Virus record (IMG/VR): IMGVR_UViG_3300010376_000048
Coordinates: 1 to 48,553 of that record
From: a virus
Taxonomy: Duplodnaviria > Caudoviricetes
DNA length: 48,553 nucleotides
Strand: one strand, 5' to 3'
Shown here: in pieces, positions 7,268 to 48,553 of the stretch
How the letters are laid out: each line of letters opens with the position of its first letter
Position numbering within the stretch: the stretch's first letter is position 1
Notes under the pieces: model-generated
What the model was told of the DNA's origin: nothing
Seen by the model: the letters and a program-made list of their open reading frames with translations, nothing else
Databases searched by the model: none
Made by a program: the position numbers and the translations under genes

Positions 7268-8311
7268 ATGGCAACCCTAGGCGCAACTGCCCTTACATAC
7301 CTCGACTGGGCAAAGCGGGTTGACGATGGTTACCAGATCGCCTCGATCATCGAGATGCTGTCTCAGACCAACGAAATCCTTGAGGACATGCTTGTCATCG
7401 AGGGCAACCTGCCAACCGGCCATAAGACGACCGTTCGGACCGGCCTTCCGCAAGCCACTTGGCGCTTGCTGAACCAAGGTGTGCCGAACGCCAAGTCAAC
7501 GACCGCGCAGATCGTCGACACCTGCGGCAACCTTGAGACCTACGCGGTGATCGACAAGGACATCGCGGACCTCAACGGCAACACGGCCTCCTTCAGGCTC
7601 TCGGAGGTTAAGGCCTTCCTCGAGGGCATGTCTCAGCAGGTGGCTGCGACGGTGGTTTACGGGAACCAGTTCATCAACCCTGAGCGGTTCACCGGCTTCG
7701 CTCCGAGGTACTCGACAAAGAACACCACCAACTCGATGACGGCCAACAACGTCCTCGACGGTGGTGGGACTTCCTCAACCAACTCCTCGATCTGGATCGT
7801 GACGTGGGGTGCGGACACCTGCCACGCGACGTTCCCAAAGGGCAAGGTCACCGGCCTTCAGCATCGGGACATGGGTGAGTGGCCCGTTACCGACTCCTCG
7901 GGCAACACCTATCAGGCCTACCGCGACCACTTCAAGTGGGAGATCGGCCTCGTGCTGAGGGATTGGCGCTATGTCGTTAGGATCGGGAACGTTGATGTCA
8001 CCCAGCTTACCGGTGTGGCGGCAGCGAACCTGATCAACCTGCTGGTCCGGGGGCTCTATCGGTTGCCGACCGCTCCGGTCTCCGCGACCACCATCCAGAC
8101 CTCCGACTCGCCTGAGGTTCGGGCGAACATGGGGCGGACGGTGATCTACTGCAACCGCGTCCTCCGCACCTACCTCGACCTCCAGGCGATGAACAAGACC
8201 AACGTCCTGCTTCGGATTGAGGAGTTCGATGGGAAGCCCGTGACGACCTTCCGTGGCATCCCCATCCGCACTGTGGACGCAGTCCTCAACAACGAAGCTC
8301 AGATCGTGTAA
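7268..8311 (+). CDS. Major capsid protein (BPP-1-like)
   Basis: IIEMLSQTNEIL.D, EGNLPTGHKTTVRTGLP..TWR..NQGV, GL..RDWRYVVRI.N, F.GIPIR.VD. Confidence 0.93.
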   Translation: MATLGATALTYLDWAKRVDDGYQIASIIEMLSQTNEILEDMLVIEGNLPTGHKTTVRTGLPQATWRLLNQGVPNAKSTTAQIVDTCGNLETYAVIDKDIADLNGNTASFRLSEVKAFLEGMSQQVAATVVYGNQFINPERFTGFAPRYSTKNTTNSMTANNVLDGGGTSSTNSSIWIVTWGADTCHATFPKGKVTGLQHRDMGEWPVTDSSGNTYQAYRDHFKWEIGLVLRDWRYVVRIGNVDVTQLTGVAAANLINLLVRGLYRLPTAPVSATTIQTSDSPEVRANMGRTVIYCNRVLRTYLDLQAMNKTNVLLRIEEFDGKPVTTFRGIPIRTVDAVLNNEAQIV

Positions 8312-8321: not shown

Positions 8322-8867
8322 ATGATTATCGACTTCTTTGGACAGTTCACTGGTGGCTCTGGTGCCCCTGGCAACAACGACGGAGCGACGGACAGCCCGA
8401 CTACGGGAACCCAAGGCTCCTCGAACATCCTCGACCTCCACATGGCTGGCATCCCTGTCCTTGCTTCGGGCCAGGGCGCCAGGGACCTTGGGATCGGTGA
8501 CGACCCGGCCCTCAAGTTGATGGTTGAGGTCACCACCGCCTTCACTGGGGGGACCAGCCTTCAAATCGCCATTCAGGGCTCGCCCGACAATGGTTCTGGC
8601 GCTCCGCTTGGCTTCCAGAACTACGTCTTGAGCGCGGTTGTGCTTGAGGCCAGCCTGATCGTCGGGTCTCGATTGCTCGACATCGATCTGCCCCGGCCCC
8701 CGCCTGGCGTTCCATTCCCGAGGTTCCTGACCCTCGCGTACATCTCCGCGGGAACCCATGGGGCTGGAAAGCTCCGAGCTGCGTTGGTCCTCGATCGCCA
8801 CGATCAGCCCTTGCAGGCCAACGCGATCCTTGGTGGCTATCCCGCTGGCGTGTTCATCGCCAACTAG
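8322..8867 (+). CDS. Capsid cement/decoration protein (Bbp16-like)
   Basis: MIID..., SSNILDL, RDLGIG, V.VTTAFTGGTSLQ..IQGSPDN, RFL.L.Y; AGGAG SD; follows the MCP. Confidence 0.75.
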   Translation: MIIDFFGQFTGGSGAPGNNDGATDSPTTGTQGSSNILDLHMAGIPVLASGQGARDLGIGDDPALKLMVEVTTAFTGGTSLQIAIQGSPDNGSGAPLGFQNYVLSAVVLEASLIVGSRLLDIDLPRPPPGVPFPRFLTLAYISAGTHGAGKLRAALVLDRHDQPLQANAILGGYPAGVFIAN

Positions 8868-8876: not shown

Positions 8877-9359
8877 ATGCGCAAAATCCTCATTGGCGCG
8901 GGGGCGCTACTTGCCCTCGCTCTGGGCATCGGGGTTGGCTTCTATGCCCAAGGCCAGCCCGTCACTCAGCAATCCATCTCTGGTAACGAATGCTGGAACG
9001 CTGGGCAGGGCCCTGGAGGCCCTTCTCAGTTTCTCTGCATCAACCAGGTGCGGAATGGTGCAGCTCTAACGATCTTCTCGGGGTCTGGTGCTCAGACCTT
9101 TACCGCTACCCAAGCCAACTCGACCCTGTTCTGGAGTGGCACCGCCCCTACGACCTGGACCATCACCCTGCCATCCCCAGCATTCGATGGCGAGATAATC
9201 TCGGTCGGCACCGACACTACCCTGACCACCCTGGTAACCGTAAACGCAGGGACCGGCCAGACCATGAATGGTACTTTCACCAGCCAGACGATCTCCGCAA
9301 ACACTTCGGTTGAGTTTCAATTCAACGCGTCTGGCGCCAAATGGTATAGGGCACGCTGA
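8877..9359 (+). CDS. Signal-peptide-bearing beta-rich virion/decoration-like protein
   Basis: MRKILIGAGALLALALGIGVGFYAQG-Q; TITLPSPAFDGE.I and C-terminal WYR motif typical of small tail/decoration domains; 2 Cys. Confidence 0.7.
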   Translation: MRKILIGAGALLALALGIGVGFYAQGQPVTQQSISGNECWNAGQGPGGPSQFLCINQVRNGAALTIFSGSGAQTFTATQANSTLFWSGTAPTTWTITLPSPAFDGEIISVGTDTTLTTLVTVNAGTGQTMNGTFTSQTISANTSVEFQFNASGAKWYRAR

Positions 9360-9613
9360 TGGCAAGGGTTCGACTTACCGCTGCGCTCGTGGTTGGCCAT
9401 ACGAAGCTGAAGGCCGGTGCAACCGTGGCCGATTCTACTGGAGCAGCCCAAGCTGGTGACTTCGTGTGGACCGGCCTCAACTCCACCACCTTCAACAACG
9501 CAATGGTTCCGCTGGATGGGGCAGCGACAACCATGCAAGCAGCATCGAGGTGGCCATCTGGCCCGACGGTACCTTACCCCGACGGGGTTAACTCAGTTGG
9601 AGGTGTTGGCTGA
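9359..9613 (+). CDS. Hypothetical virion-module protein
   Basis: TGATG coupling on both sides. Confidence 0.7.
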   Translation: MARVRLTAALVVGHTKLKAGATVADSTGAAQAGDFVWTGLNSTTFNNAMVPLDGAATTMQAASRWPSGPTVPYPDGVNSVGGVG

Positions 9614-10146
9614 TGGCTAGATGGCAGTTGAAGGTGCCACACTACCTGATGGTAGAGGGCACCAAATGGGAATACTCAGAGGTCGACCGTATCACCGGTC
9701 GGCCGAAGAGGGTGCAATTCAACGTCCCCCGTTATCTCGACCCTGGTGACCCAGCGGATCAAACCGTGAAGGTTCCGGGGTTTCCTGAAGAGGGCAAGCT
9801 CAACGTCACCAATGGCGGAACCCACGAAGCGAACGATGTTGTGTTCGTTGGTGACCCTGGGCCGGATATGATACCCCTTGATGACGAGGCTAAAGCCATT
9901 TCAGCTTCGTTCTCGAAGAAATGGGTCAACCCGATTGAGGACCTGCCGGTTAACATGACCTATGCTGACCGGTTGCTTGAGAGCCTTCAGTCCGAGGTCG
10001 CCCAGCTTCAATCTCAGCCGAAGTCTGCCCCAGCGAGCGACCTTGGCGAGCTGAAGGACCTGATGGTGCAGCAGTCGAAGATGTTCACTGACTTGCTTAC
10101 TGTCTTTGGCGCAATGGCGAAGGCGCAAACCGTTCGGAGGGTCTGA
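9613..10146 (+). CDS. Hypothetical protein (ends TVRRV)
   Basis: Coupled ORF with a C-terminal coiled coil. Confidence 0.75.
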   Translation: MARWQLKVPHYLMVEGTKWEYSEVDRITGRPKRVQFNVPRYLDPGDPADQTVKVPGFPEEGKLNVTNGGTHEANDVVFVGDPGPDMIPLDDEAKAISASFSKKWVNPIEDLPVNMTYADRLLESLQSEVAQLQSQPKSAPASDLGELKDLMVQQSKMFTDLLTVFGAMAKAQTVRRV

Positions 10147-11576
10147 TGCGCAAACTCCTTCTCGCTGCGTTATTGGCGCTGCTACCACATGAGGCCTCTG
10201 CGCAGTCCCAGACCATGCCCCCGCCAGCGGGAATGATTGTGGCCCTCTGCGCCAGTAACGTGGCTTCGCCAACGCCCATCGCTGGGCTTCCCTACATCCT
10301 TCAATGCGATAACACTGGGGCCTTGAAGGTCAACGCCTCGGTCACGGCATCGATTGCTGGCTTTGCTCCAGCAGCCACCTTCGCGACCATCACTACTGGT
10401 GCGGCTTCGGTCTCGACGGCCTTACCTGCGGGCGCTGTAGTACTGTTCCAGAACACCGGCACAACCGCGGTCAGCTGCACCCTTGGGGTTGGCGCTGCCA
10501 CTGCGACGGCAAACCAGAATATCGTCCAGCCTGGGTCCTGGCTTGCTTTGACAGTTGGGGCCAATACCTTCGGGGCTTGCATTCCAACCTCCGGTTCGAC
10601 CGCCAACCTTGTGGTGTTGTCTGGCGGGTCCGGTCTTCCCACTGGCTCTGGTGGCGGTGGTGGAGCGGGTGGTGGCGGAGCTGTCTTCAGTTCCACCGCG
10701 CCAGTCTCGACCATGAACTCTGCGAGCGCCAACGCTGGTCTCAACTCCGCGATTGCGGGCAACTTTGACGACGCTACCACTACCCTCTGCACTGAGAATA
10801 ACTTCTGCTTCCTGCGGATGTCGACCAACCGAAACCTCTATGGAACGATCCGCGACGCAGCGGGCAACGAACGCGGGGCGAACGTCGATGCAAGTGGCAA
10901 TCTTTCGGTTGCGGTCAACAACACTCCGACGGTTTCTGGCACGGTGACCGCCAATCAGGGTGGCACTTGGACCGTTCAGCCTGGGAACACCGCGAACACG
11001 ACCCCTTGGCTGGCGACGATCAACCAGGGCGGCAACTCCGCGACGGTCTCTGCGGCTGGGGCGTTGAGTCACAACACCACTCAGCTTGGCGGCAACACCA
11101 TTAACCTTGGAACTGGCGCTACCAGCACTGGCACTCAGCGGGTTGTGACTGCAAGTGACAGCCCTGAAATAGCAATCCTTAACACCATTTCTACCAACAC
11201 TGCGTCGTCGATCCCACCCGCCCCGGCCGGCAGCGGCAACGTGCTGACTGGCAACAGCTGTGGCTCAGCGGCCGACAATTGCGTGCTAAAGGCATCGGCC
11301 GGGAACCTGTATGGTGTCTATGCCGAGTGCACCTCAGCTTGCTGGCTGATGGTGTTCAACGCCACGGCAAAGCCCGCGAATGGGGCGACGACCGCTGGGA
11401 ACGCCAGTGGCAACCTCGTTGAGTGCATCGATGTGGCCGCGAATAGCTCGCGTTCGCTGACCTACCCAGTGTTCCCACGGGCGTTTACAGTGGGGATCGT
11501 AGCGGTTGTTAGTTCGACGGCCTGTGCCACTTTGACCGCTAGTGCCGTTGGCTTCATCAGCGGAACGGTGATGTGA
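10146..11576 (+). CDS. Secreted-type fibre/adhesin-like protein
   Basis: Signal peptide MRKLLLAALLALLPHEASA-Q; A/T/G-rich beta repeats, VSGTVTANQGGTW fibre repeat; 12 Cys. Confidence 0.75.
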   Translation: MRKLLLAALLALLPHEASAQSQTMPPPAGMIVALCASNVASPTPIAGLPYILQCDNTGALKVNASVTASIAGFAPAATFATITTGAASVSTALPAGAVVLFQNTGTTAVSCTLGVGAATATANQNIVQPGSWLALTVGANTFGACIPTSGSTANLVVLSGGSGLPTGSGGGGGAGGGGAVFSSTAPVSTMNSASANAGLNSAIAGNFDDATTTLCTENNFCFLRMSTNRNLYGTIRDAAGNERGANVDASGNLSVAVNNTPTVSGTVTANQGGTWTVQPGNTANTTPWLATINQGGNSATVSAAGALSHNTTQLGGNTINLGTGATSTGTQRVVTASDSPEIAILNTISTNTASSIPPAPAGSGNVLTGNSCGSAADNCVLKASAGNLYGVYAECTSACWLMVFNATAKPANGATTAGNASGNLVECIDVAANSSRSLTYPVFPRAFTVGIVAVVSSTACATLTASAVGFISGTVM

Positions 11577-12082
11577 TGCTTAAAACCTGGGACCGAGTTA
11601 TGTTCTCCATCGGCATTATTCTGTTGCTGATGGCGCTCAATATCGATGACAAGCCGCAGGCTCAGTACGCTGGGTATGGCAACGATGCCATCCTCAACGC
11701 TGGGCCTGCCAATCCGATCGGCCTTACTACGGCTGGGATGTTTGGATTGGGCTCAACGTGCAAGATCACTCCGATTAACGTGACCCGTGTGATCGTGAGC
11801 GTGACAGGTAACCTCACCCTCACCGCAGCTGGTAACGTGATCACCTCCCTGCGCTTCGGCACTGGTACCGCGCCAATTAATGGAGCCGCAGCGACTGGCA
11901 CGACCATAAGCAGCGTCATGACTTTCTTTGCTGTTAGCGGAGCCTTGGCACAGCCTATCACTTGGACTGGAATCCAGTCCGGCCTGACACCCGGTACCGC
12001 GATTTGGTTCGACGTAGCTGTCACGCCATCAACCGGAACGGTGACTATGCCTAGTATCGGTTGCTTTGCAGCGGGGATATAG
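11576..12082 (+). CDS. Secreted-type beta-sandwich protein
   Basis: Hydrophobic N-terminus ending PQA-Q; T/G-rich strands; 2 Cys. Confidence 0.7.
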   Translation: MLKTWDRVMFSIGIILLLMALNIDDKPQAQYAGYGNDAILNAGPANPIGLTTAGMFGLGSTCKITPINVTRVIVSVTGNLTLTAAGNVITSLRFGTGTAPINGAAATGTTISSVMTFFAVSGALAQPITWTGIQSGLTPGTAIWFDVAVTPSTGTVTMPSIGCFAAGI

Positions 12083-12083
12083 C

Positions 12084-12692
12084 ATGAAGCGCCTCCTTCC
12101 GATCTTGCTGTGTGGCTGCATCCTTGCCTTTGGCCCATCAATTGCTGTGCTGGCCCAGCTCATCACCAGCAGCGGGGGAGGTGGTGGCGGCACACCTGGG
12201 GGGAGCAACACCCAGTTCCAGTACAACAACAGCGGGGCGTTTGGTGGCACTCCTAACCTGACGTTAGGAGGGGCAACGATAGCTGGTGGTCTAGATCTGT
12301 GGATGACGGGGCGCAATGTTATTGTTGAAAAATTTGTCTTTTTCAACGCTAACAATGCGGTGACGTTGGCGAATGGGAACAACGTCAACATCACGGTAAA
12401 CAGTTCTTACAATCGTATCACTGGGCCAAGCGCGGTGTTCAACGTCAATTGCATCACCTTTCCACAGAATGCGGCTTATGGCGGAGCCAGTGCTGGGGAA
12501 ATGGTTGTGTTCTACAATGCGGTGGCGTTCGCGATGACGATCAAGAACGAGGATACCACCAACTGCACGACGGCAGCTAACCGTATCAAAACCCTGACCG
12601 GTGCGGATGTAACCCTGCGGGCAGGGACGAGTTCGGCAACGTTTTATTACGATGGCACCGATGCCCGTTGGATACTTACGGGAACAAACTGA
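12084..12692 (+). CDS. Secreted-type tail-fibre-like protein
   Basis: Signal peptide ending AVLA-Q; PGGSNTQFQYNNSGAFGG fibre motif; ANRI...YDGT..RW C-terminal domain. Confidence 0.75.
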   Translation: MKRLLPILLCGCILAFGPSIAVLAQLITSSGGGGGGTPGGSNTQFQYNNSGAFGGTPNLTLGGATIAGGLDLWMTGRNVIVEKFVFFNANNAVTLANGNNVNITVNSSYNRITGPSAVFNVNCITFPQNAAYGGASAGEMVVFYNAVAFAMTIKNEDTTNCTTAANRIKTLTGADVTLRAGTSSATFYYDGTDARWILTGTN

Positions 12693-12704
12693 TGAGAGGG
12701 CAGC

Positions 12705-12878
12705 ATGACATGGCGGATTTGCGCGATCGTTGGGTTCCTAATCTTGTTCATCGGTGCCGCGAGCGCGTGGCGGCATGGCGCGGCCAACTGCTCCGGTGGG
12801 GGGTTTCTGGTGACGGACGCGCTGAGCTGCACCGACATCTTGACGACGGATGCAGCGGACCCGCTCACCCCGAACTGA
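12705..12878 (+). CDS. Nested 57-aa signal-peptide protein (not in ORF track)
   Basis: MTWRICAIVGFLILFIGAASA-WRHG..FLVTDALSCTDILTTDAADPLTPN; GAGGG SD; C-terminus resembles that of 32638-32877. Confidence 0.6.
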   Translation: MTWRICAIVGFLILFIGAASAWRHGAANCSGGGFLVTDALSCTDILTTDAADPLTPN

Positions 12879-14626
12879 TCAGCTATCTTGACGACGAATG
12901 CAGGAAATTCGTTGCTACCAAACTAATTGACAAGCGGACCGCGCTGATCGGTGGGGCCGGCCTTGCTGCACTGTTTTCCTCGCAGGCCGAGGCAGCTACA
13001 CAGTTCACCACCTGGCCGTTCCTGGCCACAGGGGGAACTAGCGGTGGCATGACGATGCCCGCTCGATTGGCGTTGCAGCGTAACGTCAAGGATTTTGGGG
13101 CCGTCGGTGATGGCGTTGCTGATGATACCACCGCAATCCAGGCCGCCATCAACGCAGCATCGACACAGGGCGCACCAGGGCGCACTCCGGGTGGGACGGT
13201 CTATATACCAGCGGGCGCTTACAAGGTGACTGCTGCGTTAACCCCACCCAACAATGGATGTCGCATCAGGGTGATTGGTGATGGCTCGCTCGCGACGTAC
13301 ATCTTCAGCAACAATCAGATTTGGATATTTGACTGCGCTGGAACGTCTGGAAACGGCGTGTTCCAAGAGTTTTCTCACCTCAACATCGTGAACAACTTTG
13401 CCCCTCTTAGCGCGGGTGAGGATGCTTCCTTCGGGTGCATTCGAATTGGGGGTGGAGTTGCAGGCGTGTCGCCTGGTATCTATGGGGGCCTATTGAGCAA
13501 CTGTGAATTCGGTGGATTTAACTGTGTTCTTGCCAATCTCAATGTATTTCAGACTGTCATGGTAGCCTGTAATGCTACGGGGACTTATGACTGGGGAGGC
13601 GTCGCGTTCGACGTTGGTGGGACGACCTGCATCGCCTGTCATGCTGCCGCCTACTGGAACGGATTCAGGATCGCCAGAAACACCTCCGGTGGGATGCTCG
13701 GTTGTCGTACCGAAAACTGCTACTACGGTACCATTCTTGGGATGGATGAGACTGGGGCTGCACAGAAAGCGTTTGGCGTCGTGGTTGCTGGTCTGACGAC
13801 GGAACGGTGTAGCATTGGCATTTTGGTCAATTTCTGTGAGGAATCCACCATCAGTGCAGTTGTGATTACCGGAACCTATGGTTCCGACAATGGAGCCAGC
13901 AATTTCAATTGGACCGCTGGGACAGTGACGGTGACCGTTAGGGCCAACCAATCTCTTAGCAAGTTCGGTTGGACGACCAACGCCACGACCCGGCAAGTGA
14001 TGATCAATGACCCTGTCGGGTCAGGTACCAACTCGTTCGGAACACCTGGAACAACTGTGACTGGGACGCGGACGAGTGACACGACGTTCACTTATCCGCT
14101 AGCTACCTTTACCGGTGTCAACAACAGAAGCAACGTGGTGTGGACGCTCGGCATCGTGGCCGGTGTGCAGTTCAAGTATTTTGACGGCTCGTTCGTTTGT
14201 AGTGGCGTCGATGCGCGCGGAAACAGTGCTGGCTCCTACGCGACTGGCGGAGTGGGGTTTGACTTTTATGGCGGGAACACTTTTGGGCAGACCAACAACT
14301 GTACGCTGGTTGGATGCAATGCCGGTGTTGGTGGTTGGTCTATGCCTCCTGCCAAATACAAGGCTGGTTATCAATTCACCAATTGCGACAACCCGACGGG
14401 ATCGACTACGGACGTGGCGGGCAACCAGGCGGGGATGAATTTTGCGGACTTGCCGGGGCAGGCCAGCGTGCAACTGACTACCCCCATTGAGGGCATGACC
14501 TATGACATCGTCAACTGCAACACATCGACGTTCTTGGCAGCAGCAGCTGGAGGCGGCTCTGGTGCTACAGCACATCGTCGGGTCCGCTACAACGCGGCAA
14601 CTCCTGGATGGCAGGTGGTAGGCTGA
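12710..14626 (+). CDS. Tailspike / right-handed beta-helix polysaccharide depolymerase; start uncertain
   Basis: NVKDFGAVGDGVADDTTAIQAAINAA...GGTVYIPAGAY pectate-lyase-3-type cap followed by beta-helix repeats; Tat-like segment upstream. Confidence 0.85.
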   Translation: MADLRDRWVPNLVHRCRERVAAWRGQLLRWGVSGDGRAELHRHLDDGCSGPAHPELISYLDDECRKFVATKLIDKRTALIGGAGLAALFSSQAEAATQFTTWPFLATGGTSGGMTMPARLALQRNVKDFGAVGDGVADDTTAIQAAINAASTQGAPGRTPGGTVYIPAGAYKVTAALTPPNNGCRIRVIGDGSLATYIFSNNQIWIFDCAGTSGNGVFQEFSHLNIVNNFAPLSAGEDASFGCIRIGGGVAGVSPGIYGGLLSNCEFGGFNCVLANLNVFQTVMVACNATGTYDWGGVAFDVGGTTCIACHAAAYWNGFRIARNTSGGMLGCRTENCYYGTILGMDETGAAQKAFGVVVAGLTTERCSIGILVNFCEESTISAVVITGTYGSDNGASNFNWTAGTVTVTVRANQSLSKFGWTTNATTRQVMINDPVGSGTNSFGTPGTTVTGTRTSDTTFTYPLATFTGVNNRSNVVWTLGIVAGVQFKYFDGSFVCSGVDARGNSAGSYATGGVGFDFYGGNTFGQTNNCTLVGCNAGVGGWSMPPAKYKAGYQFTNCDNPTGSTTDVAGNQAGMNFADLPGQASVQLTTPIEGMTYDIVNCNTSTFLAAAAGGGSGATAHRRVRYNAATPGWQVVG

Positions 14627-15081
14627 TGGCAGACCTCGATCAGGGCGGTAGCGCCTTTCAGTTCGTGAACGTCAACCTTGGCCCGACTCTTGGTTGGTTT
14701 CGGGGGCAGGTTGAGTCCATGCCTCAGCGGAGGATTACCGTTGGTGGCGCCACTAACATTGGCGCTGGGGATTCCCTTGTCTTGGTTGATGCTGGGGCGA
14801 ACAACGTCACGCTGAACCTTCCGGATGTGACTCAGTGGCTTGCGATTTCCCAAGTCCTTCCGCTGAACATTAGCCAGATCGTGCCCTACGTCCAGGGCTT
14901 TGAGAGGGCGATTTGGATTAAGGACTTCGGTGGCAATGCGGCTACCAACAACATTAGCATTGTGCCGTATGGCACGCAGACCATCGATAAGTTCAACATG
15001 CCCTTTAAGATCGTGCAGGCCCGAATGCTTCTTCGTCTTTACCCGATAGTAAGTGGAGCAACTGGATGGTTAAGTGGCTAG
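14626..15081 (+). CDS. Tail-associated protein without signal peptide
   Basis: VTLNLP...IWIKDFGGNAATNNISIVP.GTQTID motif, seen in small phage tail/fibre-anchor domains. Confidence 0.65.
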   Translation: MADLDQGGSAFQFVNVNLGPTLGWFRGQVESMPQRRITVGGATNIGAGDSLVLVDAGANNVTLNLPDVTQWLAISQVLPLNISQIVPYVQGFERAIWIKDFGGNAATNNISIVPYGTQTIDKFNMPFKIVQARMLLRLYPIVSGATGWLSG

Positions 15082-16208
15082 CCCTTGCTACCTCGTGCCT
15101 GACTGCGCTGTGGCCGGTCTTGGCAGTGGCCCAGGATATCCCTGCCCATTCGATGCCGATAGGCCAGGGTCCTGGGGTTGTTGGTTGGGGCGTTGGCGGA
15201 CCTTGCAATGCAGGACAGGTGTTGGTCTGGCAAGGTGGCCCAGGGGCCGATCCAAGCTGTGCTACTGCGGGGGGCGGTGGCGGTGGCTTTCCTGCGACCT
15301 CTCAACTGTCCTTCTTCGTTGCAACGACAGGGGACAACGCGAACAACTGTATTACGGCTGCGACTGCATGCTTCACAATTGAATACGTTATAAGGCTGTG
15401 CCCAATTGGCACCCGTTGCGTCATCAACATCGCTCCAGGAACCTATGTTGCTTACGGTGACCCCACCCACCCAAGCAACCCCACCGACCCAATTGCGCCT
15501 ATGATAGCGAGCCCTGCGTACAACACTTTCTATTATCGAACAATTAATTTCTCCGGTAAAGACCCTGTTTCTGGCAGCTGCAATGTGAACAACGTGAATA
15601 TCCATGCCGGGGAGAACGGCCAGACCATCTTTGAGTCCCAAGATCATGCCGTGATCTTTGTGTCCTGTTTGACCTTCGTCAACAACCCCATTCCTGGAGC
15701 CTGTGGTGGAAGCCCGTGCACTGGGGTTTTTATGATTGATGGTAGGCAACTTGCGATTGTTGACGCTGATGACATTCAGATCACCAACAACTGGGTTAAC
15801 GGAACCTTCCTTTCCGCAACTGACCTTGCTTCGGTGAACTGTGGCAACACCTTCCGGATGCAATCATTCGGAACTGCTCCGAACTCGCTGAATGCTCTTG
15901 GGGTTGCTCAGGCCAGAGCTAAGCTCAACTGGGCCTGCCAAGGCAGCTTCTTTGCCTCCGGATCATGGACCACTGCTGCGTTTGTTGCGTCTGGTGGGGC
16001 TATGATCGATCTGTCGGGGGGTTCGGGGTTCCCGAGCTTTAACCTCAACACCGGGGTGACCATCACTGGTCCTCAATGCAATATAACCCAAGGGGCGATC
16101 ATGCTTTCGGCTCAACAGCTACCGCCACCGCCTCCAGCTGGGGGTGGAACTGGAATCCCCGGAACCGCTGGGTCCTGCACTACTGGTGGGGGAGGGATGG
16201 TGTTCTAA
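15066..16208 (+). CDS. Secreted-type Cys-rich beta-helix protein
   Basis: Signal peptide ending AVA-Q; FVATTGDNANNC.....CFTI..INIAPGTY beta-helix cap; 14 Cys in mature part. Confidence 0.75.
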   Translation: MVKWLALATSCLTALWPVLAVAQDIPAHSMPIGQGPGVVGWGVGGPCNAGQVLVWQGGPGADPSCATAGGGGGGFPATSQLSFFVATTGDNANNCITAATACFTIEYVIRLCPIGTRCVINIAPGTYVAYGDPTHPSNPTDPIAPMIASPAYNTFYYRTINFSGKDPVSGSCNVNNVNIHAGENGQTIFESQDHAVIFVSCLTFVNNPIPGACGGSPCTGVFMIDGRQLAIVDADDIQITNNWVNGTFLSATDLASVNCGNTFRMQSFGTAPNSLNALGVAQARAKLNWACQGSFFASGSWTTAAFVASGGAMIDLSGGSGFPSFNLNTGVTITGPQCNITQGAIMLSAQQLPPPPPAGGGTGIPGTAGSCTTGGGGMVF

Positions 16209-16870
16209 TGCGTAAGCTCATTGCATTAGCTCTGGCCTTGCTTCCGACCTTGGCGTCGGCCCAGTCTACAAACCAGACCTTGGGAACTGACTTTGGCAAC
16301 GCCGCGTTGTCGACTGGGGCATGCCCGTCGGGCGGTACCAACATATGCTCTACCACCCCAGCTATTGGCGTTAATACCCGCGAAATCGCGACGATGGCGT
16401 CGTTGATAAGTGGGACGAGGCCTCAGATATCCGCGCAGGTGTCGGCTGACACATCGTCAGGGGCAGGCGCGTGCAGTACTGGAATTGTAAGTGGGACCCC
16501 ATGCCAGATCATTTGGAACCTTGCGGATGTTGACACAGCGGGAGGCCTCAACACCTCCACCGGTAGTTATGCCGTTGCCACTCCTGGGACTTACGTCTTC
16601 TGCGCCACCGTTACCTTTCAATACACCCCTACCTTCACCCCAGCCAATGCCATTGTACAAATCCTTAAGAATGGAAGTGTTGTTGCAACGACGAGGGATT
16701 CTTATCCGGTCTTGACTAATCTTCAAGCCGCGAAGACCATATGTAGGATGGCAACCTTTGCTTTGAACGACTTGCTAACAACCAACATTCTTATGATTGG
16801 AAACGCGTTTGTCATTAAGGGCTCTACCACTGGGATCACCACGTTCTACGGAGCAAGGATAGGACCGTAA
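16208..16870 (+). CDS. Secreted-type protein with C-terminal C1q/TNF-like domain
   Basis: MRKLIALALALLPTLASA-Q; IWN...D..GG.N.STG.Y....PG.Y.F, ILKNG, terminal F.G..I; 6 Cys. Confidence 0.75.
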   Translation: MRKLIALALALLPTLASAQSTNQTLGTDFGNAALSTGACPSGGTNICSTTPAIGVNTREIATMASLISGTRPQISAQVSADTSSGAGACSTGIVSGTPCQIIWNLADVDTAGGLNTSTGSYAVATPGTYVFCATVTFQYTPTFTPANAIVQILKNGSVVATTRDSYPVLTNLQAAKTICRMATFALNDLLTTNILMIGNAFVIKGSTTGITTFYGARIGP

Positions 16871-17703: not shown

Positions 17704-17968
17704 GGATATCCTCTCCGAGTATGGCCCAGAGCACCATTCTCCCAAACCAGCGCGCGCTGAGTCTGGTGGATGTACTTCGGCTAGAGATGTAAGGGCCTAC
17801 CAACCTCCGAAAGGGCCAACGAACATCAACGATCCGAAGGGCCCAGGGCTCCATGGTGATAACTATGGGAACGCAGGGACGCAAGGGAAGACCTCGATCT
17901 CTTGTGGTGAATCTGGCTCCCCTGGGCTTCATGGGCAGAGCAAAGGCCATGGGACCAATAGGGGATGA
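17696..17968 (+). CDS. Small G/P-rich protein with internal PGLHG repeat
   Basis: GGAGGAG SD; PGLHG occurs twice. Confidence 0.65.
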   Translation: MPRDILSEYGPEHHSPKPARAESGGCTSARDVRAYQPPKGPTNINDPKGPGLHGDNYGNAGTQGKTSISCGESGSPGLHGQSKGHGTNRG

Positions 17969-18690
17969 CCACCGACGTTGACATCGCCAACCGGGCCCTT
18001 CAGCTGGTCGGCACGCGCACGACGATAGCTTCGTTAAGTGACAACACTAACGAGGCTATCCAGTGCAACCTGTGCTACACCGCTATCCGCGATTGGTGCC
18101 ATTCGATCGAGAACTGGAACTTCGCGCGGAAGACCGTTGCGTTGGCCTCCGCAAAGAGCGTAGCGTTGCCGATTGGCACTTGGACCACGGCTTCACCCGC
18201 GCCACCTTGGTTGAATGAGTACACAGTCCCTGGGGATTTCATTCGGGCGATCTACGTCACGAACATGAACCATAACAACAACCCAGCGACCTCGTATGAT
18301 GGTGAGCCCCAAAGATTCGCGGTGGCGACCGACACCATTGCTGCCTTGCAGCAAGAGGTGATTCTTACCAATCAGGGCAACGCTATCCTCACCTACACCT
18401 CTCGGGTGAGTGACCCGACCCTGTGGCCGTTGTTCTTTGAACGGGTTGTGGTTTCTGCCGTTGCACGGACCATTTGCCTTGCACTGACGCAATCGATGCA
18501 GTTGTTTAAGATCTTGGAAGAGAACGCAATCATGATGATAACCCAAGGGGTCCTCCTCAATCGAGCTGAAGGCCTGGCCTTTGAGGATACCACTCCGGAA
18601 TGGGTGAACGCTCGGGGGATTGTCTTCCCTGAGCGGCAGATGAAGGTGATTAAGGCTGTCGATGGAGATAGCGATGGTGGCAAGCGTTGA
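17965..18690 (+). CDS. Tail adaptor / tail tubular protein A, paralog 1
   Basis: DVDIANRAL..VG, WNFARKTVAL, W..EY..P.DFIR, DPTLW...F. Confidence 0.85.
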   Translation: MTTDVDIANRALQLVGTRTTIASLSDNTNEAIQCNLCYTAIRDWCHSIENWNFARKTVALASAKSVALPIGTWTTASPAPPWLNEYTVPGDFIRAIYVTNMNHNNNPATSYDGEPQRFAVATDTIAALQQEVILTNQGNAILTYTSRVSDPTLWPLFFERVVVSAVARTICLALTQSMQLFKILEENAIMMITQGVLLNRAEGLAFEDTTPEWVNARGIVFPERQMKVIKAVDGDSDGGKR

Positions 18691-19423
18691 TATCGCAAAT
18701 CGAGCATTGATCCTGGCTGGATCGGAGGTCTTGCTTCCAGCGCTGACGCAGGACTCAATGGAGGCGAAGACCCTCAACCTTGTCTACCAACCCCTCATCG
18801 ACTATTGCCACACCTTGACAAACTGGAACTTCGCGAGGAAAACTGTGGCGTTGACGGTGAGCAAATCACTTCCTGCCCCACCGCTGCCAAGTTGGGGCGC
18901 ATCGACCATGCCTTCGCCTCCGTGGCAATTTGAGTACCTTCTCCCGACGGACTTCATCAAGGCCCAGTACGTCACCAACCAGGCCAACGTGAACAACCCC
19001 GCGAGGTACGATGGTGAACCCCAACGGGGCCAGGTGGTCATGATCAACACCGGGACCCCACAGTTGGTGGTTCTGACCAATCAGACCTTGGCCTTGCTGG
19101 TGTACACCGCGAGGATTCTGGACCCGACGCAGTGGTCGCCATACTTCACTCAGCTGGCGGTGGAGGTGCTTGCAGCGGAGATTGCCCTGTCTATCTCCAA
19201 GAGCCTTGAGCTTCGTGCACATCTTCGGCAGGTTTCGCAAGAGACCATTGCCTTCGCGATCATGGCGAACAAGGCTGAGGGCCTGATCACCGACGATACC
19301 ACGCCCGAATGGATCGATGCTCGGGGCATTGGGTATCCGTTCAACCAGGGTGACCCGAGACTTGGGGTGCGGACTCCGCTGGCGTTTATGAGGGAGCCTC
19401 AACGCAATGACCGTGGACGTTGA
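18674..19423 (+). CDS. Tail adaptor / tail tubular protein A, paralog 2
   Basis: VDIANRAL, WNFARKTVAL, PPWQFEYLLPTDFI, YDGEPQR, DTTPEWIDARG shared with paralog 1. Confidence 0.85.
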   Translation: MVASVDIANRALILAGSEVLLPALTQDSMEAKTLNLVYQPLIDYCHTLTNWNFARKTVALTVSKSLPAPPLPSWGASTMPSPPWQFEYLLPTDFIKAQYVTNQANVNNPARYDGEPQRGQVVMINTGTPQLVVLTNQTLALLVYTARILDPTQWSPYFTQLAVEVLAAEIALSISKSLELRAHLRQVSQETIAFAIMANKAEGLITDDTTPEWIDARGIGYPFNQGDPRLGVRTPLAFMREPQRNDRGR

Positions 19424-20450
19424 CATCTGCAATCGGGCGCTGGTGGCGATTGGTTGGCCTGGGGTTATCCCTTCGATGACCCAGGATAGTGAGGCCGCGC
19501 AGACCTGTAACCTCGTCTACGCTGCCCTGAGGGATGAGCTGATCCGGCTGGCGCCTTGGAACTGCGCCAAGACCATGGCGAATCTTCAGTTCCTTACCGC
19601 TGTGCCTGGAACACCAGAGAACCCAACTATCGGTACGACTACTTGGCAGAAGCAGTTCCCTGCTCCACCTTGGACTTACGAATACCTCCTTCCGATTGAT
19701 TTGATCCGAGCCCTCTACGTTGTTCCGCAGTACCCAACGGGGTTCTCCGGGGGGATACCGATTACCACTGCGGTGACCGGAGGCATCCCGACGTTTTGGA
19801 ATGGCCCTCCGGTGAGGTTCAATGTGGCTATGGATCAGCCGATCTACACCACTGCTGCCGCGCCTGCTAATATGGGGCAGAATTATAAGGTTGGCGACAA
19901 CATTATCCTTGCTCAGCCAACAGGCATCGATGTGCCTTCGATTCTTACCGTCACCAGCGTGGGCCCTAGCGGGTCGGTGACTTCAGTTGCTCTATACATG
20001 CGCGGTAGCTACAGTGCCACTCCGGTTGGCCCTCAGGCCCAAGGTTCGACGACTGGTGGAGGAACCGGGGCAACCTTCAACCTTACCGTGACCGCTGGGG
20101 TTGACACCAAGGTCCTCCTCACCAACCAAGAGTTCGCCATCCTTGCCTACCTCAAGCGCGTGACCGATCCGAATCAGTGGGATAGTCAGTTCCAGGAAGC
20201 TATGATCTCTGCTTTGGCTTCGCGGATCGCTTTGCCCTTGATGAAGGACCTCAACCTTGCCGAGGCAAAGCTCAAGGACGCCAACATGCGTATTGGCGTG
20301 GCCAGGCAGGGCGATGGGAACGAGGGCCTCACCATCAACAACGTCGATCCGGATTGGATTCGGATCCGGGGCATCGACTATCCGCTGGACTATGGGTGGA
20401 CCCCAAATATGAACGCCCCGTTTGACTGGGGCATGATGCTGACGATGTAA
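19407..20450 (+). CDS. Tail adaptor / tail tubular protein A, paralog 3, with ~90-aa inserted beta domain
   Basis: DVDICNRAL, PWNCAK, PPWTYEYLLPIDLIR, PDWIRIRG; insertion GQNYKVGD...LTVTSV...GGGTGATFNLT. Confidence 0.85.
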   Translation: MTVDVDICNRALVAIGWPGVIPSMTQDSEAAQTCNLVYAALRDELIRLAPWNCAKTMANLQFLTAVPGTPENPTIGTTTWQKQFPAPPWTYEYLLPIDLIRALYVVPQYPTGFSGGIPITTAVTGGIPTFWNGPPVRFNVAMDQPIYTTAAAPANMGQNYKVGDNIILAQPTGIDVPSILTVTSVGPSGSVTSVALYMRGSYSATPVGPQAQGSTTGGGTGATFNLTVTAGVDTKVLLTNQEFAILAYLKRVTDPNQWDSQFQEAMISALASRIALPLMKDLNLAEAKLKDANMRIGVARQGDGNEGLTINNVDPDWIRIRGIDYPLDYGWTPNMNAPFDWGMMLTM

Positions 20451-22735
20451 TGAGCAGCAATTCGATCCAGCCTGACTTCTCTGCGGGCGAGCTTTCCCCG
20501 CAGCTTTTCGCTCGGGTGGATTTGAAGCAGTACCACCTTGGCGCTGCGAAGATGCTCAATTTCTTCGTCGACTTTAGGTCCGGAGCTTCGACGCGACCAG
20601 GGACGAAGTACATCGCCAACTCTGCGGATCAGACCGTTGGAGGGCAACGCGCGAGGCTCTTTCCCTTTCAGGTCACCGATGTTCAGGGCTATGTTCTTGA
20701 GTTCACCAACCTGGCTTTGAACATCTACAAGAACGGGGTTCTGCTTGCTGGGGCTTCGGCCAGCCCTATTACCACGCCCTACGTTACTGCGGATTTATTC
20801 ACCCTTAAGTTCGCGCAGCGAGCAAATACCCTTATTATCACCCACGTAAATTACCCAGCGAAGATTCTCACCTACACCAGCGACACCGTTTGGTCCCTAG
20901 CGAACATCACCTATGGAGCAACCCTTCCGACTGTTCCATTTGCTGGTGAGACTACTGGTCTTGGCACTTACCCAGCCAATAACGGATTGCCTGGTTCGCA
21001 GTCCAATCTTCAAATGGCCTTTGTGGTTGTTGGTACAAGGGCATTGGCAACAGTGCAGTTTAACTACATCGTTTGTGCAGTTGATGCTAATGGTCAGGAG
21101 GGCCCGGGTAGACCTATTATTGGTTCGCTTGCAACGAGTGGTGATATTGTTGGCATAACCATATACCTAAATTGGTATGCAATTCCTGGAGCGGTTGCTT
21201 ACAATGTTTATAAAGCTCCCCCACAATACTATGCTACCGGTATAGCCGGCACTACGCAAGGGTTTGGTTTCCTTGCATCGGTAAATCAGCCGTCACCGGT
21301 TAACACCGTTCCAGCTACAGCAACCTTGGTTTCTTACACCGACACCTATCCGCAGACTCCGAATACCCAGATCGGCACCGACCCCAACTACGCGGAGACA
21401 CCTCCGATCATCGTCACCGATCCATTCAATGGGACTGGCAACCCAGCAGTTTGTGCCTTCTACGATCAGCGGCTTTGGTTTGGGGCGACTGGAGCGCCCG
21501 GGTCGCCAACGGGCTCTCCGCAGACAGTCTGGGCCAGTCAGCCAGGAGCTTACACTGGTTCATTCTTCAACTTCAACTACTCCAATCCCATCCAAGAAGA
21601 CGACGCCATCACCGCGACCTTGGTGTCGAAGGAACTTTCGACGATTAAGCACTTCACCCCGATGTCAGATGGCCTGCTGACCTTCTCTGCCCATGGGGCG
21701 TGGAAGATTACTGGAGGAGCGGCCTTGGCAGCCATCACTCCGGTTAACATTGCCGCGAAGCCCCAAGCTTATAATGGCGCAAGTGATCTGATTCCGATTG
21801 TGATTGAATACGACGTTCTCTACGGTCAGGCTAAGCAATCCATCGTTCGTGACATTGCCTATAGCTTCTACCAGGCGAATTACTTCGGGGAGGATATCTG
21901 TTGGCAATCGAACCAGCTGTTCTTCGGAGCCAAGCTTACTGACTGGGATTACGCTGAGGAGCCATTTAAGATCGTTTGGGTTGTTCGGAATGACGGGGCA
22001 ATGTTAAGCCTGACCTTCGTCAAGACCATGGGGATTGTTGGTTGGGCGGCGCACAATACCCAAGGCTTGTTCCAGGCGGTGGCGGTGGTTACCGAGACTG
22101 CTCCGGACGGAACCCTTGTCGACGCTGTCTACGTTGAGGTTTGGCGCTCAGGAGCTAGCCCACCTGCTAGGTACATCGAAAGGCTTATGGAACGGACCTT
22201 CCCGACGATTAGCGACTGCTGGTGTCTTGATGCCGCGAAGCTATACGTTGGGGCTCCGATAACCGTCGTTACTGGCTTGGGGCATCTTAATGGAATGTTG
22301 GTGAACGCCCTTGCCGATGGGGTCGTCTATAATAGCCTGACGGTGTCTGGTGGCTCGGTGACCATACCCGGCCCTGCTGCGTCTAAGATTTTGGTTGGCC
22401 TTGCCTTTACATGTCAACTCCAGACGATACCACTGGATCTTGGCAACCCTACGGTTCAGGCCAAGCTGAAGAAGATTCCGAGGATGACGATGCAGTTGAA
22501 GGAGGCCTCAAGATTGGAGGTCGGCCGGACCTTCAGCAACATGGTGTTCATGAACGAGTTCTCCCCACCCACCTTGTGGCCTACCAATAGCCTGTTCACC
22601 GGAACCATCCCAGTGACACTCGACTCGTTGTGGGATGTTCCCGGTCAGGTCTGCATCCGCCAGGCCCAACCTTACCCAGCAACCGTCCTTGGGGTGACCC
22701 TTGAGGACGAAATAGGGAGTGATTGGGAAAAATGA
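20450..22735 (+). CDS. Tail nozzle / tail tubular protein B
   Basis: Q.DFSAGELSP.L.ARVDL..Y, N..V...GA..RPGT, FYDQRL.F, W..RNDG, GW..H. Confidence 0.9.
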   Translation: MSSNSIQPDFSAGELSPQLFARVDLKQYHLGAAKMLNFFVDFRSGASTRPGTKYIANSADQTVGGQRARLFPFQVTDVQGYVLEFTNLALNIYKNGVLLAGASASPITTPYVTADLFTLKFAQRANTLIITHVNYPAKILTYTSDTVWSLANITYGATLPTVPFAGETTGLGTYPANNGLPGSQSNLQMAFVVVGTRALATVQFNYIVCAVDANGQEGPGRPIIGSLATSGDIVGITIYLNWYAIPGAVAYNVYKAPPQYYATGIAGTTQGFGFLASVNQPSPVNTVPATATLVSYTDTYPQTPNTQIGTDPNYAETPPIIVTDPFNGTGNPAVCAFYDQRLWFGATGAPGSPTGSPQTVWASQPGAYTGSFFNFNYSNPIQEDDAITATLVSKELSTIKHFTPMSDGLLTFSAHGAWKITGGAALAAITPVNIAAKPQAYNGASDLIPIVIEYDVLYGQAKQSIVRDIAYSFYQANYFGEDICWQSNQLFFGAKLTDWDYAEEPFKIVWVVRNDGAMLSLTFVKTMGIVGWAAHNTQGLFQAVAVVTETAPDGTLVDAVYVEVWRSGASPPARYIERLMERTFPTISDCWCLDAAKLYVGAPITVVTGLGHLNGMLVNALADGVVYNSLTVSGGSVTIPGPAASKILVGLAFTCQLQTIPLDLGNPTVQAKLKKIPRMTMQLKEASRLEVGRTFSNMVFMNEFSPPTLWPTNSLFTGTIPVTLDSLWDVPGQVCIRQAQPYPATVLGVTLEDEIGSDWEK

Positions 22736-30898: not shown

Positions 30899-31144
30899 GT
30901 GGCTGATCGTCCTTATCATCTTCGTCATCTTGGAGCACTGGCCTTGACCGAGGAACAGACCAGGACGCTGATTGCCCTCTTAGCGCTGGCCGGGTTCTAC
31001 GGCCTCATGCTGATCGTGCTGTTGGGATTCGTGAACGTGGGGTCGCCTGAGATGTCGAAGCTGGTTGGTCTGTTCTTTGGCTACGCGATGGCGCTGATGA
31101 ACCCGATCATCGTTAGGTACTTCAAGAACAGGAGGGAAGAATGA
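30899..31144 (+). CDS. Probable holin (two TM helices)
   Basis: Two hydrophobic segments, YF + charged C-terminus; overlaps endolysin start. Confidence 0.7.
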   Translation: MADRPYHLRHLGALALTEEQTRTLIALLALAGFYGLMLIVLLGFVNVGSPEMSKLVGLFFGYAMALMNPIIVRYFKNRREE

Positions 31145-32091
31145 AATTCGCCATATCCAGTGGCCACGGGAAGTACGTCCGTGGAGCTAAGGGCCTGATC
31201 GATGAGGTTGACGAGGCTCGAAGGGTGGTACCGGCGGTGGCTGGCTTCCTTCGCCATGCTGGCCATCAGGTGGTGACGTTCAATGACGATACCTCGACGA
31301 GCCAGAACCAGAACCTCCAGACGATTGTGAACTGGCACAACTCTCAAACTAGGGACTTTGACGCTAGCGTCCACTTCAATGCCTACATCCCGACCAGCGC
31401 GGGCCGAGGTTGCGAAGTCCTCTACGTCACCCAAGGGGATATCGCAGCGAAGGTTTCCTCCGCTATGTCCGCAGCGGGCGACCTGATCGATCGAGGGCCG
31501 AAGAAGAGGACCGATCTCTACTTCCTGAACAAGACGAACAAGCCCGCGATCCTGCTTGAAGTTTGCTTCGTCGACGCGGCTCAGGATGTCGAACACTATC
31601 AGCTGAACTTCGACAAGATTTGCAAGGCAATTGCGGATGTCGCGGGAACCAGCAATAACGAAGAACCGGCACCACCGCCTCTCGGGGTGTCCGCGTTGCT
31701 CACCGCGAAGGGGAAATGTTCATGGTTCGGAGGACCGAATGACAAGGGAGTCACGCCAAGCGAGGGCCTGGCCTTCATCTATAAGTACGAGGACCGACCA
31801 GACCTATTCTTGGCTAAGCAGCCGCCTAATACAACCGGTCTGGCTCGTCGCCTCAATCCTGACGTTTTGTATATTGCTTGTCGATGGGACTATTCGAAGA
31901 CTCCGAAGTCGATGCTCGCGGACAAGGCGATACAGGCCTTGGTGAAGGCGAAGGGGAAGGAACTCTTGGCTTGGCCAGCGGACTGGGGGCCAAACCAATC
32001 AACCGGACGGGTCGCTGACTTGAGCCCTGGGTTGATGAAAGCCTTGGGAGTATCGACCGATGACAGCGTTGAGGTTAGGTACCCTAGCTAG
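31141..32091 (+). CDS. Endolysin: N-acetylmuramoyl-L-alanine amidase (Amidase_3) + C-terminal RlpA-like DPBB domain
   Basis: ISSGHG, E, SVHFNA, PAILLEVCFVD amidase motifs; C-terminal SWFGG...DWGP...RVADLSPGLMKALG. Confidence 0.88.
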   Translation: MKFAISSGHGKYVRGAKGLIDEVDEARRVVPAVAGFLRHAGHQVVTFNDDTSTSQNQNLQTIVNWHNSQTRDFDASVHFNAYIPTSAGRGCEVLYVTQGDIAAKVSSAMSAAGDLIDRGPKKRTDLYFLNKTNKPAILLEVCFVDAAQDVEHYQLNFDKICKAIADVAGTSNNEEPAPPPLGVSALLTAKGKCSWFGGPNDKGVTPSEGLAFIYKYEDRPDLFLAKQPPNTTGLARRLNPDVLYIACRWDYSKTPKSMLADKAIQALVKAKGKELLAWPADWGPNQSTGRVADLSPGLMKALGVSTDDSVEVRYPS

Positions 32092-32404: not shown

Positions 32405-32641
32405 ATGATCGTACTTATCACTGATGACGGTTGGACTCTTGCGGTAGCTGCATGGTCGCTCGGTGGCGATCCAGGACACCCTGACAGGACGTTCTTGAGC
32501 TACTTCTGGGGCCAGAATGGCACGAGCCAGGCTTGGAGCGTAACGCTCTACAAGCCGGTGCAGGATGTGATGGACTTGCTTATCAACACCGCTGCTGAGG
32601 GCATCTGTGATCTGCGCCCATTGCAAATCGCGCCATCGTGA
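32405..32641 (+). CDS. Hypothetical protein
   Basis: AGGAGG SD. Confidence 0.65.
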   Translation: MIVLITDDGWTLAVAAWSLGGDPGHPDRTFLSYFWGQNGTSQAWSVTLYKPVQDVMDLLINTAAEGICDLRPLQIAPS

Positions 32642-32877
32642 GGTGGCGGCTCGCCATTCTTCTGCTGCTTGTCTTCCCAACTCGGGTGGCTGATAGCCAG
32701 TTGGGGCAGATTGAACTTGATTCGACCAACACCCTGAAGTGCCACCCGGCTTGGAAGTGTCCACCTCCTCCGCCACCGCCACCACCCCCACCCCCACCAC
32801 CTACAACGAGTTACCTTCTAGACAGCGCTGGCAACATCCTGACCACAAATGCTGGCGATCGGCTGCTAGCGGATTAG
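32638..32877 (+). CDS. Small secreted-type protein with a P14 tract
   Basis: Signal peptide ending ADS-Q, C-x5-C, 14 consecutive Pro in mixed codons, YLLDSAGNILTTNAGDRL tail. Confidence 0.6.
   Translation: MRWRLAILLLLVFPTRVADSQLGQIELDSTNTLKCHPAWKCPPPPPPPPPPPPPPTTSYLLDSAGNILTTNAGDRLLAD

Positions 32878-48418: not shown

Positions 48419-48553
<135 letters not shown>

Follow-up and report, generated by a model that had tools for sequence, protein, structure and literature searches.

The assembly of tailed virions is generally held to finish in the cytoplasm. Virion proteins with Sec leaders are known from filamentous phages, in which pIII and pVIII carry such leaders, pIII acquires periplasmic disulfides, and both stay membrane anchored and are added during extrusion without lysis. 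The window analyzed here, by which is meant the whole 48,553-nucleotide stretch of IMG/VR virus record IMGVR_UViG_3300010376_000048, seems to be a complete or almost complete phage genome and differs from the filamentous phages in that it codes for a lytic tailed virion and for leader-bearing proteins whose mature chains lack a membrane anchor. Most of the genes for these proteins lie between the capsid cement gene and the tail adaptor genes, an interval referred to below as the block. As judged from sequence, their products are very likely exported to an oxidizing compartment and, with less certainty, would join the virion afterward.

Among the closest described systems are the podoviruses epsilon15, phiV10, and BPP-1 (Uetakevirus and Rauchvirus), which have the same order of portal, scaffold, gp7 capsid, Bbp16 cement, adaptor, nozzle, and ejection genes. 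In the cement-adaptor interval, phiV10 has two short signal-less genes and Caulobacter phage SR18 has one, and no leader was called in the genes tested; the phiV10 tailspike is also signal-less and has the standard N-terminal anchoring domain, which the window lacks. Membership of the window in the epsilon15/BPP-1 type was indicated by capsid (PF20911) and cement (PF21190) matches, both above the cut-off, and by portal, adaptor, nozzle, and ejection genes in the conserved order. On sequence, the window is placed in a large uncultured clade of such podophages, because the closest cultured capsids (phiV10, BPP-1, and their kin) have about 47 to 53% identity to the window capsid, whereas the best 80 of 594 IMG/VR relatives have 84 to 89%; an estimated 730 IMG/VR stretches match at the capsid level. 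The runs containing the window sequence were soil metagenomes, with no RNA run among those listed. A literature search of limited coverage, which left out supplements such as virion proteomics tables, found nothing on exported appendages of tailed phages.

The original prediction placed Sec-type leaders on eight open reading frames (ORFs), seven in the block and one at 32638. All eight ORFs exist at those starts, and all eight passed a self-written heuristic (not SignalP) that scored a positive n-region, an uncharged hydrophobic h-region, and small residues at positions -3 and -1, leaving Gln at +1 unscored. This heuristic made one false call among 807 labeled core phage genes of relatives and none among 27 replication-side genes of the window. 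Genes were called with a simple self-written caller, and seven of the eight leader ORF junctions or starts came from this caller or from manual placement on the sequence. The eight ORFs were as follows.

8877..9359, plus strand: leader-bearing 160-residue protein with an N-terminal hairpin arm carrying a Cys pair and an XD1/gp9-type beta-sandwich; candidate capsid decoration
10146..11576, plus strand: leader-bearing 476-residue fiber-like protein with 12 Cys, cut at ASA-Q; family of 6, all with even Cys counts
11576..12082, plus strand: 168-residue protein with an atypical leader and 2 Cys; no family match in Pfam or PHROG
12084..12692, plus strand: leader-bearing 202-residue protein with a Gly-rich linker, a short fiber motif, a C-terminal beta-sandwich, and 2 mature Cys, cut at VLA-Q
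12705..12878, plus strand: leader-bearing 57-residue peptide with 2 mature Cys and a Leu/Asp-rich tail, cut at ASA-W
15066..16208, plus strand: leader-bearing 380-residue fiber or spike with 14 mature Cys and a QDI-type N-terminal peptide containing two invariant Cys (alignment A2); candidate partner of the protein at 14626
16208..16870, plus strand: leader-bearing 220-residue protein with 6 Cys and a weakly C1q-like C-terminal domain (PF00386, E=0.006, below the cut-off; phrog_15750)
32638..32877, plus strand: leader-bearing 79-residue protein with a Cys pair, polyproline, and a Leu/Asp-rich tail, cut at ADS-Q

The mature chains contained 2, 12, 2, 2, 2, 14, 6, and 2 Cys, in order of position, exactly as had been claimed; at even odds, eight even counts would have a chance of 1/256. 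A small residue followed by Gln had been described at most cleavage sites, and Gln was found at +1 in seven of the eight ORFs, the exception being the 12705 peptide with its Trp. Two other leaders had peculiarities: that of 11576 was weak, with an acidic c-region and a cleavage score of 3.5, and that of 8877 was cut early by the heuristic, at residue 15, the family alignment setting the mature start at the Gln. The starts of 10146, 11576, and 16208 were coupled to the upstream stop codon through TGATG or TAATG. Neither a lipobox nor a membrane anchor was present in the mature chains of the six window proteins called (beta-barrels fell outside this check), and no match to a glutaminyl cyclase or Dsb family was found among the phage genes scanned. 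The fiber or receptor-binding domains attributed to the set held up only in part, since the beta-helix belongs to a separate ORF, 12878, and the C1q match of 16208 was weak. The 10146 protein had no Pfam or PHROG match above the cut-off, and 12084 had weak matches to Phage_depo_C (E=0.03) and to the exported-fiber family F13 (E=1e-4). PDB sequence searches with alignments A1 and A4 and with 16208 gave nothing useful; a YjgF match from a PDB sequence search (E=0.003) was contradicted by the fold search. By eye, both small exported peptides (12705-12878 and 32638-32877) end in the Leu/Asp-rich tail motif, and a stretch like it lies ahead of the anchor domain in a signal-less protein of one relative (L138:8911); this tail may be another docking peptide.

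The presence of leaders in homologs of related phages, a check named beforehand, was borne out across the clade. In the cement-adaptor block of close loci, 206 of 536 genes had a leader call, compared with 7 of 123 in 46 distant loci; 83 of the 85 close loci, those with a called capsid gene, were used for these counts. Outside the block of the close loci, calls were made for none of 34 downstream core genes and for 20 of 689 upstream calls, the latter including spurious plus-strand calls over minus-strand genes. For cysteine parity, 859 distinct block proteins of at least 50 residues from loci other than the window (capsid selected and anchor selected) were reduced to 630 at 70% identity, the block being run from the locus start where the cement gene was absent. 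Among the 200 leader-bearing proteins, 179 had an even Cys count, 8 an odd count, and 13 none, whereas the 430 signal-less proteins were divided into 101 even, 169 odd, and 160 with none. Gln occupied +1 in 149 of the 200 leader-bearing proteins, against 5% in the following residues. Furthermore, within families, homology started at the predicted cleavage site, and four Cys pairs in the 8877 family were gained or lost jointly (27/1/0/20, 12/2/0/34, 3/0/0/45, and 2/0/0/46). Because a lipobox occurred in only 1 and a later transmembrane-like stretch in only 4 of the 200 leader-bearing proteins, the exported proteins appear to be soluble and not membrane tethered.

On these sequence data, the leader and cysteine feature is genuine and conserved, it is clearly under selection, and the leader-bearing proteins are very likely exported to an oxidizing compartment; the proposed export for oxidative folding is thus strongly supported, with leaders, Cys parity, covarying Cys pairs, and Gln at +1 all holding across the clade. 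The contrary explanation, that the leaders are not export signals and that assembly is cytoplasmic, with cysteines oxidized by air after lysis, has precedents in disulfide-rich tailed virions (Milano, SPP1 stopper, and PD491P1), for which the accessible part of the source mentions neither periplasm nor signals (PMC13576161), and it draws on the heuristic nature of the leader predictor. It would, however, have to account for tripartite leaders ending in A-x-A with Gln following in three-quarters of cases, for family homology that begins at the predicted cut, and for disulfide selection confined to the leader-bearing proteins of one operon, which is hard to explain without real export; we regard it as very improbable. 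Gln at +1 of most signal peptidase I substrates has been described as a rule for Bacteroidetes in the accessible part of one report (PMC5837995), a rule that does not identify the host here.

A cultured parallel may exist in the acidobacterial podovirus Tunturi_1 of Tunturiibacter (PP887698), in which gp12, gp13, gp14 (annotated as tail spike), gp16, and gp17 passed the heuristic, with 20, 10, 20, 1, and 32 mature Cys, respectively. None of 10 family profiles of the window clade matched Tunturi_1, and the terms "signal peptide" and "disulfide" are absent from the accessible text of its paper (PMC11924767).

A leader was called for 85 of 92 distinct genes lying directly behind the cement gene, whatever the state of the anchor gene described below, and six of the seven misses were labeled 8877 homologs. 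These postcement genes encoded small, length-conserved proteins of families F1, F4, F9, and F10; the 8877 family itself had 49 members, 42 with a leader call. In the 8877 model (predicted local distance difference test [pLDDT] score, 84), the commonest Cys pair was on the two strands of one predicted hairpin. The top fold matches were the capsid spike of Pa223 and TSP4 of CBA120 (Foldseek E about 1e-4, probability 1.0, TM score about 0.5). The Pa223 spike gp52 combines a capsid-attachment arm of about 40 N-terminal residues with a C-terminal knob (bioRxiv 2025.06.11.659172); it differs in having a long triple beta-helix, and the accessible text of its preprint contains neither "signal" nor "disulfide." From position and modeled fold, 8877-type proteins probably decorate the capsid directly. 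Two conserved signal-less genes follow 8877.

9359..9613, plus strand: signal-less conserved 84-residue protein; family of 30, leader call in 0 of 30
9613..10146, plus strand: signal-less conserved 177-residue protein; family of 75, leader call in 0 of 75; no cultured-phage match

By eye, these proteins resemble the small postcement gene of phiV10 and SR18 (L267:7749-8084 and L265:9294-9725).

The evidence on virion incorporation came mainly from the gene upstream of the 15066 fiber, for which the original prediction had suggested a docking site.

14626..15081, plus strand: signal-less, Cys-free 151-residue anchor candidate with a conserved 28-residue N-terminal arm and a T4 gp9/XD1 beta-sandwich (alignment A1)

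The 14626 model (pLDDT, 79) best matched residues 79 to 175 of CBA120 TSP4 (Z=12.0; root mean square deviation, 2.7; 97 residues aligned), followed by a T4-like baseplate protein, a tailspike C-domain, and the Pa223 capsid spike; among predicted viral structures it matched gp9/gp10 and fiber proteins (Atlas T4_gp9_10_N, PF07880). The T4 gp9/XD1 fold, a nine-stranded mixed beta-sandwich shared by the N-domain of T4 gp9/gp10 and by CBA120 TSP4 XD1, was found in both the 14626 and the 8877 models, and the best solved matches of both are virion appendages. A first reading of 14626 as a gp10 XD2/XD3 branching domain, taken from the Atlas match, was dropped because the aligned TSP4 segment is XD1. 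Homology between the 8877 arm and the QDI peptide was not supported (probability, 1%), and the comparison of profiles A1 and A4 was weak (23%).

Among 56 distinct copies of the anchor, 37 stood alone, with 0 or 1 Cys, and 19 ran on into longer signal-less proteins, 4 of the latter sharing the arm only. The next gene was leader bearing in 30 of the 32 stand-alone cases in which there was a next gene but in none of 18 fused cases. The tree of 52 full anchor domains contained 6 state changes, at least 3 of them forced by well-supported branches, so that the contrast between fused and stand-alone copies reflects more than one event, although the Fisher test of this contrast takes no account of kinship. 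The N termini of the partners fell into two conserved Cys-bearing peptide types, 20 of the QCNG type and 10 of the QDI type, which followed the two main anchor clades. In the reverse direction, a search from the partner side gave 50 distinct N termini, 49 of them leader bearing when starts were sought more permissively. An anchor domain, partial in some cases, lay within 800 bases upstream of 48 of the 50 and of 26 of the 28 that were newly encountered; this search favors close kin because its queries came from genes behind anchors. In addition, 4 of 11 QDI-type and 6 of 18 QCNG-type exported partners shared fiber modules with signal-less anchored fibers (fused or ordinary), some of which match PHROG tail fibers. 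The standard podovirus fiber N-domain, which by eye also opens the phiV10 tailspike, gave nothing at E of ≤10 in six frames of the window with a profile from 20 relatives; among spanning loci it was absent from 15 of 21 with a stand-alone anchor and from 2 of 10 with a fused anchor (present in 8 of 10). The 28-residue arm was also joined to unrelated C-terminal domains (L019:4016, L076:4460, L035:13137, and L033:14486) and for that reason looks like a portable particle-binding module.

A comparable organization has been described for Klebsiella and coliphage podoviruses whose receptor-binding proteins (RBPs) branch from an anchor, namely, KP34 group A, K1-5 (gp37 adapter), and G7C (gp66/gp63.1). 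As far as the accessible parts of the sources go (PMC6872550 and PMC13352976), these resemble the window clade in having a short virion-bound protein without a receptor domain, a second fiber with a conserved N-terminal peptide, and both long fused and truncated states in one clade; in KP34 group A, a truncated first RBP is accompanied by a second RBP with such a peptide. The tie between a second RBP with a conserved N-peptide and the presence of a short first protein was likewise found in the window clade. However, the window system is not a member of that group by domain, because the branch there is gp10 D2/D3 (XD2/XD3) behind a T7-type anchor, whereas the window has an XD1/gp9-type domain; moreover, its arm is unrelated to the standard fiber anchor, and its partner has a leader and a conserved Cys pair. 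Signal peptides go unmentioned in the accessible part of PMC6872550.

Taken with the export data, these patterns favor virion incorporation over a cell-surface apparatus, the two alternatives of the original prediction. Export is very likely and virion incorporation likely, and it seems rather probable, from sequence, that appendages folded in the periplasm dock onto finished particles at lysis. The capsid, the tail core, and the signal-less gp9-fold protein 14626 would be made without leaders in the cytoplasm. Late in infection, the eight leader-bearing proteins would cross the inner membrane, be cut by signal peptidase I, have their cysteines oxidized by host Dsb enzymes and their N-terminal Gln possibly cyclized, and accumulate in the periplasm; when the holin opened the inner membrane, the two pools would mix inside the cell ghost and the fibers would dock. 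In the proposed split fiber, 14626 would join the particle in the cytoplasm through its 28-residue arm, and its free XD1 face would capture the disulfide-bonded N-peptide of exported 15066, in place of the covalent link of the relatives. In a second subsystem, the small exported beta-sandwich proteins encoded after cement (8877 in the window) would decorate the capsid. The fullest version is a two-compartment virion, in which all host-recognition fibers and capsid spikes are stockpiled in the periplasm, oxidized and N-terminally blocked, and clip on at lysis with 14626 as the cytoplasmic socket, fusion having repeatedly been switched with a noncovalent socket and plug, so that particles are unarmed until the membrane breaks; we put this version forward tentatively, as slightly less likely than not to be correct.

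The export evidence fits equally well the idea that the disulfide-bonded proteins never join the virion but stay free in the periplasm or are released, serving as lectins, depolymerases, or receptor maskers and thereby blocking superinfection or opening the matrix that surrounds the host, with their late-operon place setting only timing and amount. Envelope genes beside tail genes, as with lambda lom and T5 llp, are precedents. Such free factors would leave unexplained why a Cys-free cytoplasmic domain, which heads signal-less fibers in relatives, is kept right before a leader-bearing fiber with a matched N-peptide, and they would leave the window genome without a recognizable tail fiber; the proteins also lack lipoboxes and membrane anchors, unlike exclusion proteins of the Llp/Bor/Lom type, and no integrase was matched among the window genes scanned. 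This alternative is unlikely, although it is the most serious of those considered.

Several observations weigh against docking at lysis, some of them in favor of free factors. The XD1 fold is no proof of virion location, because StcE and CpaA, which are secreted by bacteria, use this fold as a domain for binding glycans. An ordinary signal-less tail fiber was retained in 6 of the 21 spanning stand-alone loci, so that exported fibers are not always needed, and receptor binding by the window phage could fall to the signal-less nozzle alone or to the insert in its third adaptor alone. The 15066 fiber and the beta-helix protein of the window had no match to anchored fibers, nor did the small families F9 (0 of 27) and F20 (0 of 5), and the stretches shared with anchored fibers were only modestly richer in Cys (39 versus 29). 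No homologs of 14626, 8877, 15066, or 9613 were found in the cultured-phage collection. The beta-helix spike has an odd mature Cys count (17) and an uncertain start. Kinship among the counted loci was corrected for only by deduplication at 70% identity and by one tree, and the Dsb and Tat systems called upon would have to be supplied by the host.

A further point concerns XD1 itself and bears on a mixed case, in which only part of the set, such as the postcement capsid-decoration type, reaches the virion, and 14626 is a terminal capsid or tail knob and not a docking site for 15066. According to the accessible part of PMC8825819, XD1 domains do not bind trimeric partners, whereas XD2 and XD3 do, because the chain continues on both faces of XD1, which in TSP4 is an internal trimerizing domain; in the 14626 model, XD1 is C-terminal and ends the chain, leaving one face free. 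An N-terminal arm with a distal knob of the same fold is also the plan of the Pa223 spike, and the postcement leader call (85 of 92) did not depend on the anchor state. Against the mixed case, a coupling that is almost obligatory in both directions, and the way in which two peptide types (20 QCNG and 10 QDI) follow two anchor clades, point to a specific interaction, although shared ancestry could give part of this pattern; we think the mixed case distinctly improbable, more so than free factors. The suggestion that 14626 is a docking site draws real support from its virion-fiber fold and from its fusion to signal-less fibers or coupling to leader-bearing ones and is opposed by the nonbinding XD1 of solved structures. 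The extra adaptor rings, also proposed as docking sites, can be set aside, as a single adaptor was found in 27 of 27 distinct relatives examined, one of which had nine leader-bearing genes; triplication of the adaptor is peculiar to the window genome.

Between the 12705 peptide and 14626 lies a further candidate appendage that may be exported by a different route.

12878..14626, plus strand: beta-helix tailspike or depolymerase-like protein with a Tat-like leader and 17 mature Cys (PF12708, E=2e-14; 16 PHROG families, mostly tailspikes)

The 12878 frame had no ATG, GTG, or TTG after the preceding gene, and an ATC overlapped the 12705 stop codon (TGATC) where neighboring genes use TGATG; from this arrangement, the ATC at 12878-12880 is the probable start codon of the beta-helix gene, coupled to the 12705 stop. 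In another run, a contig covering 12761-12993 had this ATC without change. Homologs did not help in placing the start, as 80 loci matched the common beta-helix cap only (8 inspected). The leader read from this uncertain start has a KR variant of the Tat motif (S/T-R-R-x-F-L-K) and ends in AEA. Export in the clade may run through Tat in addition to Sec, because twin-arginine-like leaders, some with RR motifs, were seen by eye on block genes of relatives (L064:7906, L008:6320, L035:10430, and L040:6208).

If docking at lysis is correct, it would be a kind of tailed-phage assembly for which no description was found, would extend phage assembly into the periplasm in a very common soil clade, and would tie infectivity to the Sec, Tat, and Dsb systems of the host. 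It would also explain the apparent lack of tail fibers in many soil phage genomes, because such genes have the look of bacterial genes for secreted proteins. The 14626/15066 pair offers a specific, testable socket and plug, for which the relatives with fused anchors are natural controls, and Tunturi_1 offers a cultured test system for exported appendages.

The plus strand of the window further encodes terminase, portal, scaffold, a gp7/Bbp17-type capsid, a Bbp16-type cement protein, three adaptor paralogs, nozzle, ejection proteins, and amidase, and the minus strand encodes DNA polymerase A, primase, helicase, and recombination genes. The core features bordering or following the block were as follows.

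7268..8311, plus strand: major capsid protein of the epsilon15 gp7/BPP-1 Bbp17 type, cytoplasmic core (PF20911, E=5e-133)
8322..8867, plus strand: Bbp16-type cement protein, left border of the block (PF21190, E=4e-6; phrog_427)
17965..20450, plus strand: three tandem tail-adaptor paralogs of 241, 249, and 347 residues, right border (phrog_394 three times)
20450..22735, plus strand: signal-less tail nozzle (phrog_376; about 28 to 33% identity to BPP-1, phiV10, and others)
30899..32091, plus strand: holin-like small membrane protein and cytoplasmic amidase endolysin (holin suggested by hydrophobicity and position; Amidase_3, E=1e-21)

The third adaptor has an insert of about 90 residues that matches a "head decoration" PHROG, and the adaptors of relatives occur as forms of about 270 and 360 residues. 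Five small, charged, signal-less genes lie between the block and the adaptors (16872-17968); they belong to the clade-conserved families F3, F5, F6, F8, and F11, and those scanned matched nothing in Pfam or PHROG. Some relatives have within the block a multipass membrane protein of about 350 to 370 residues (family F19, 7 members; L015:13578, L179:5966, L167:2176, and L163:5014), which could modify exported proteins or the host surface.

In the host search, 5 of 51 genome loci had a capsid of >80% identity, all on contigs of metagenome-assembled genomes (1.9 to 48 kb) from unrelated taxa, and the amidase turned up neither in 401 genomes from one class nor in 401 from one phylum, sets that were centered on two such loci and searched without a positive control. 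Promoter and terminator scans of the window were at or below the shuffle level. The window ends (51-182 and 48422-48553) are inverted repeats with 95% identity over 132 bases, including long poly(T) and poly(A) runs, and could be an assembly artifact or true inverted terminal repeats, the latter unusual for such phages. Finally, DNA polymerase A is split into two genes (33985-37084), the upstream one, of 339 residues, combining a uracil-DNA glycosylase domain with a stretch that matches the polymerase PHROG.

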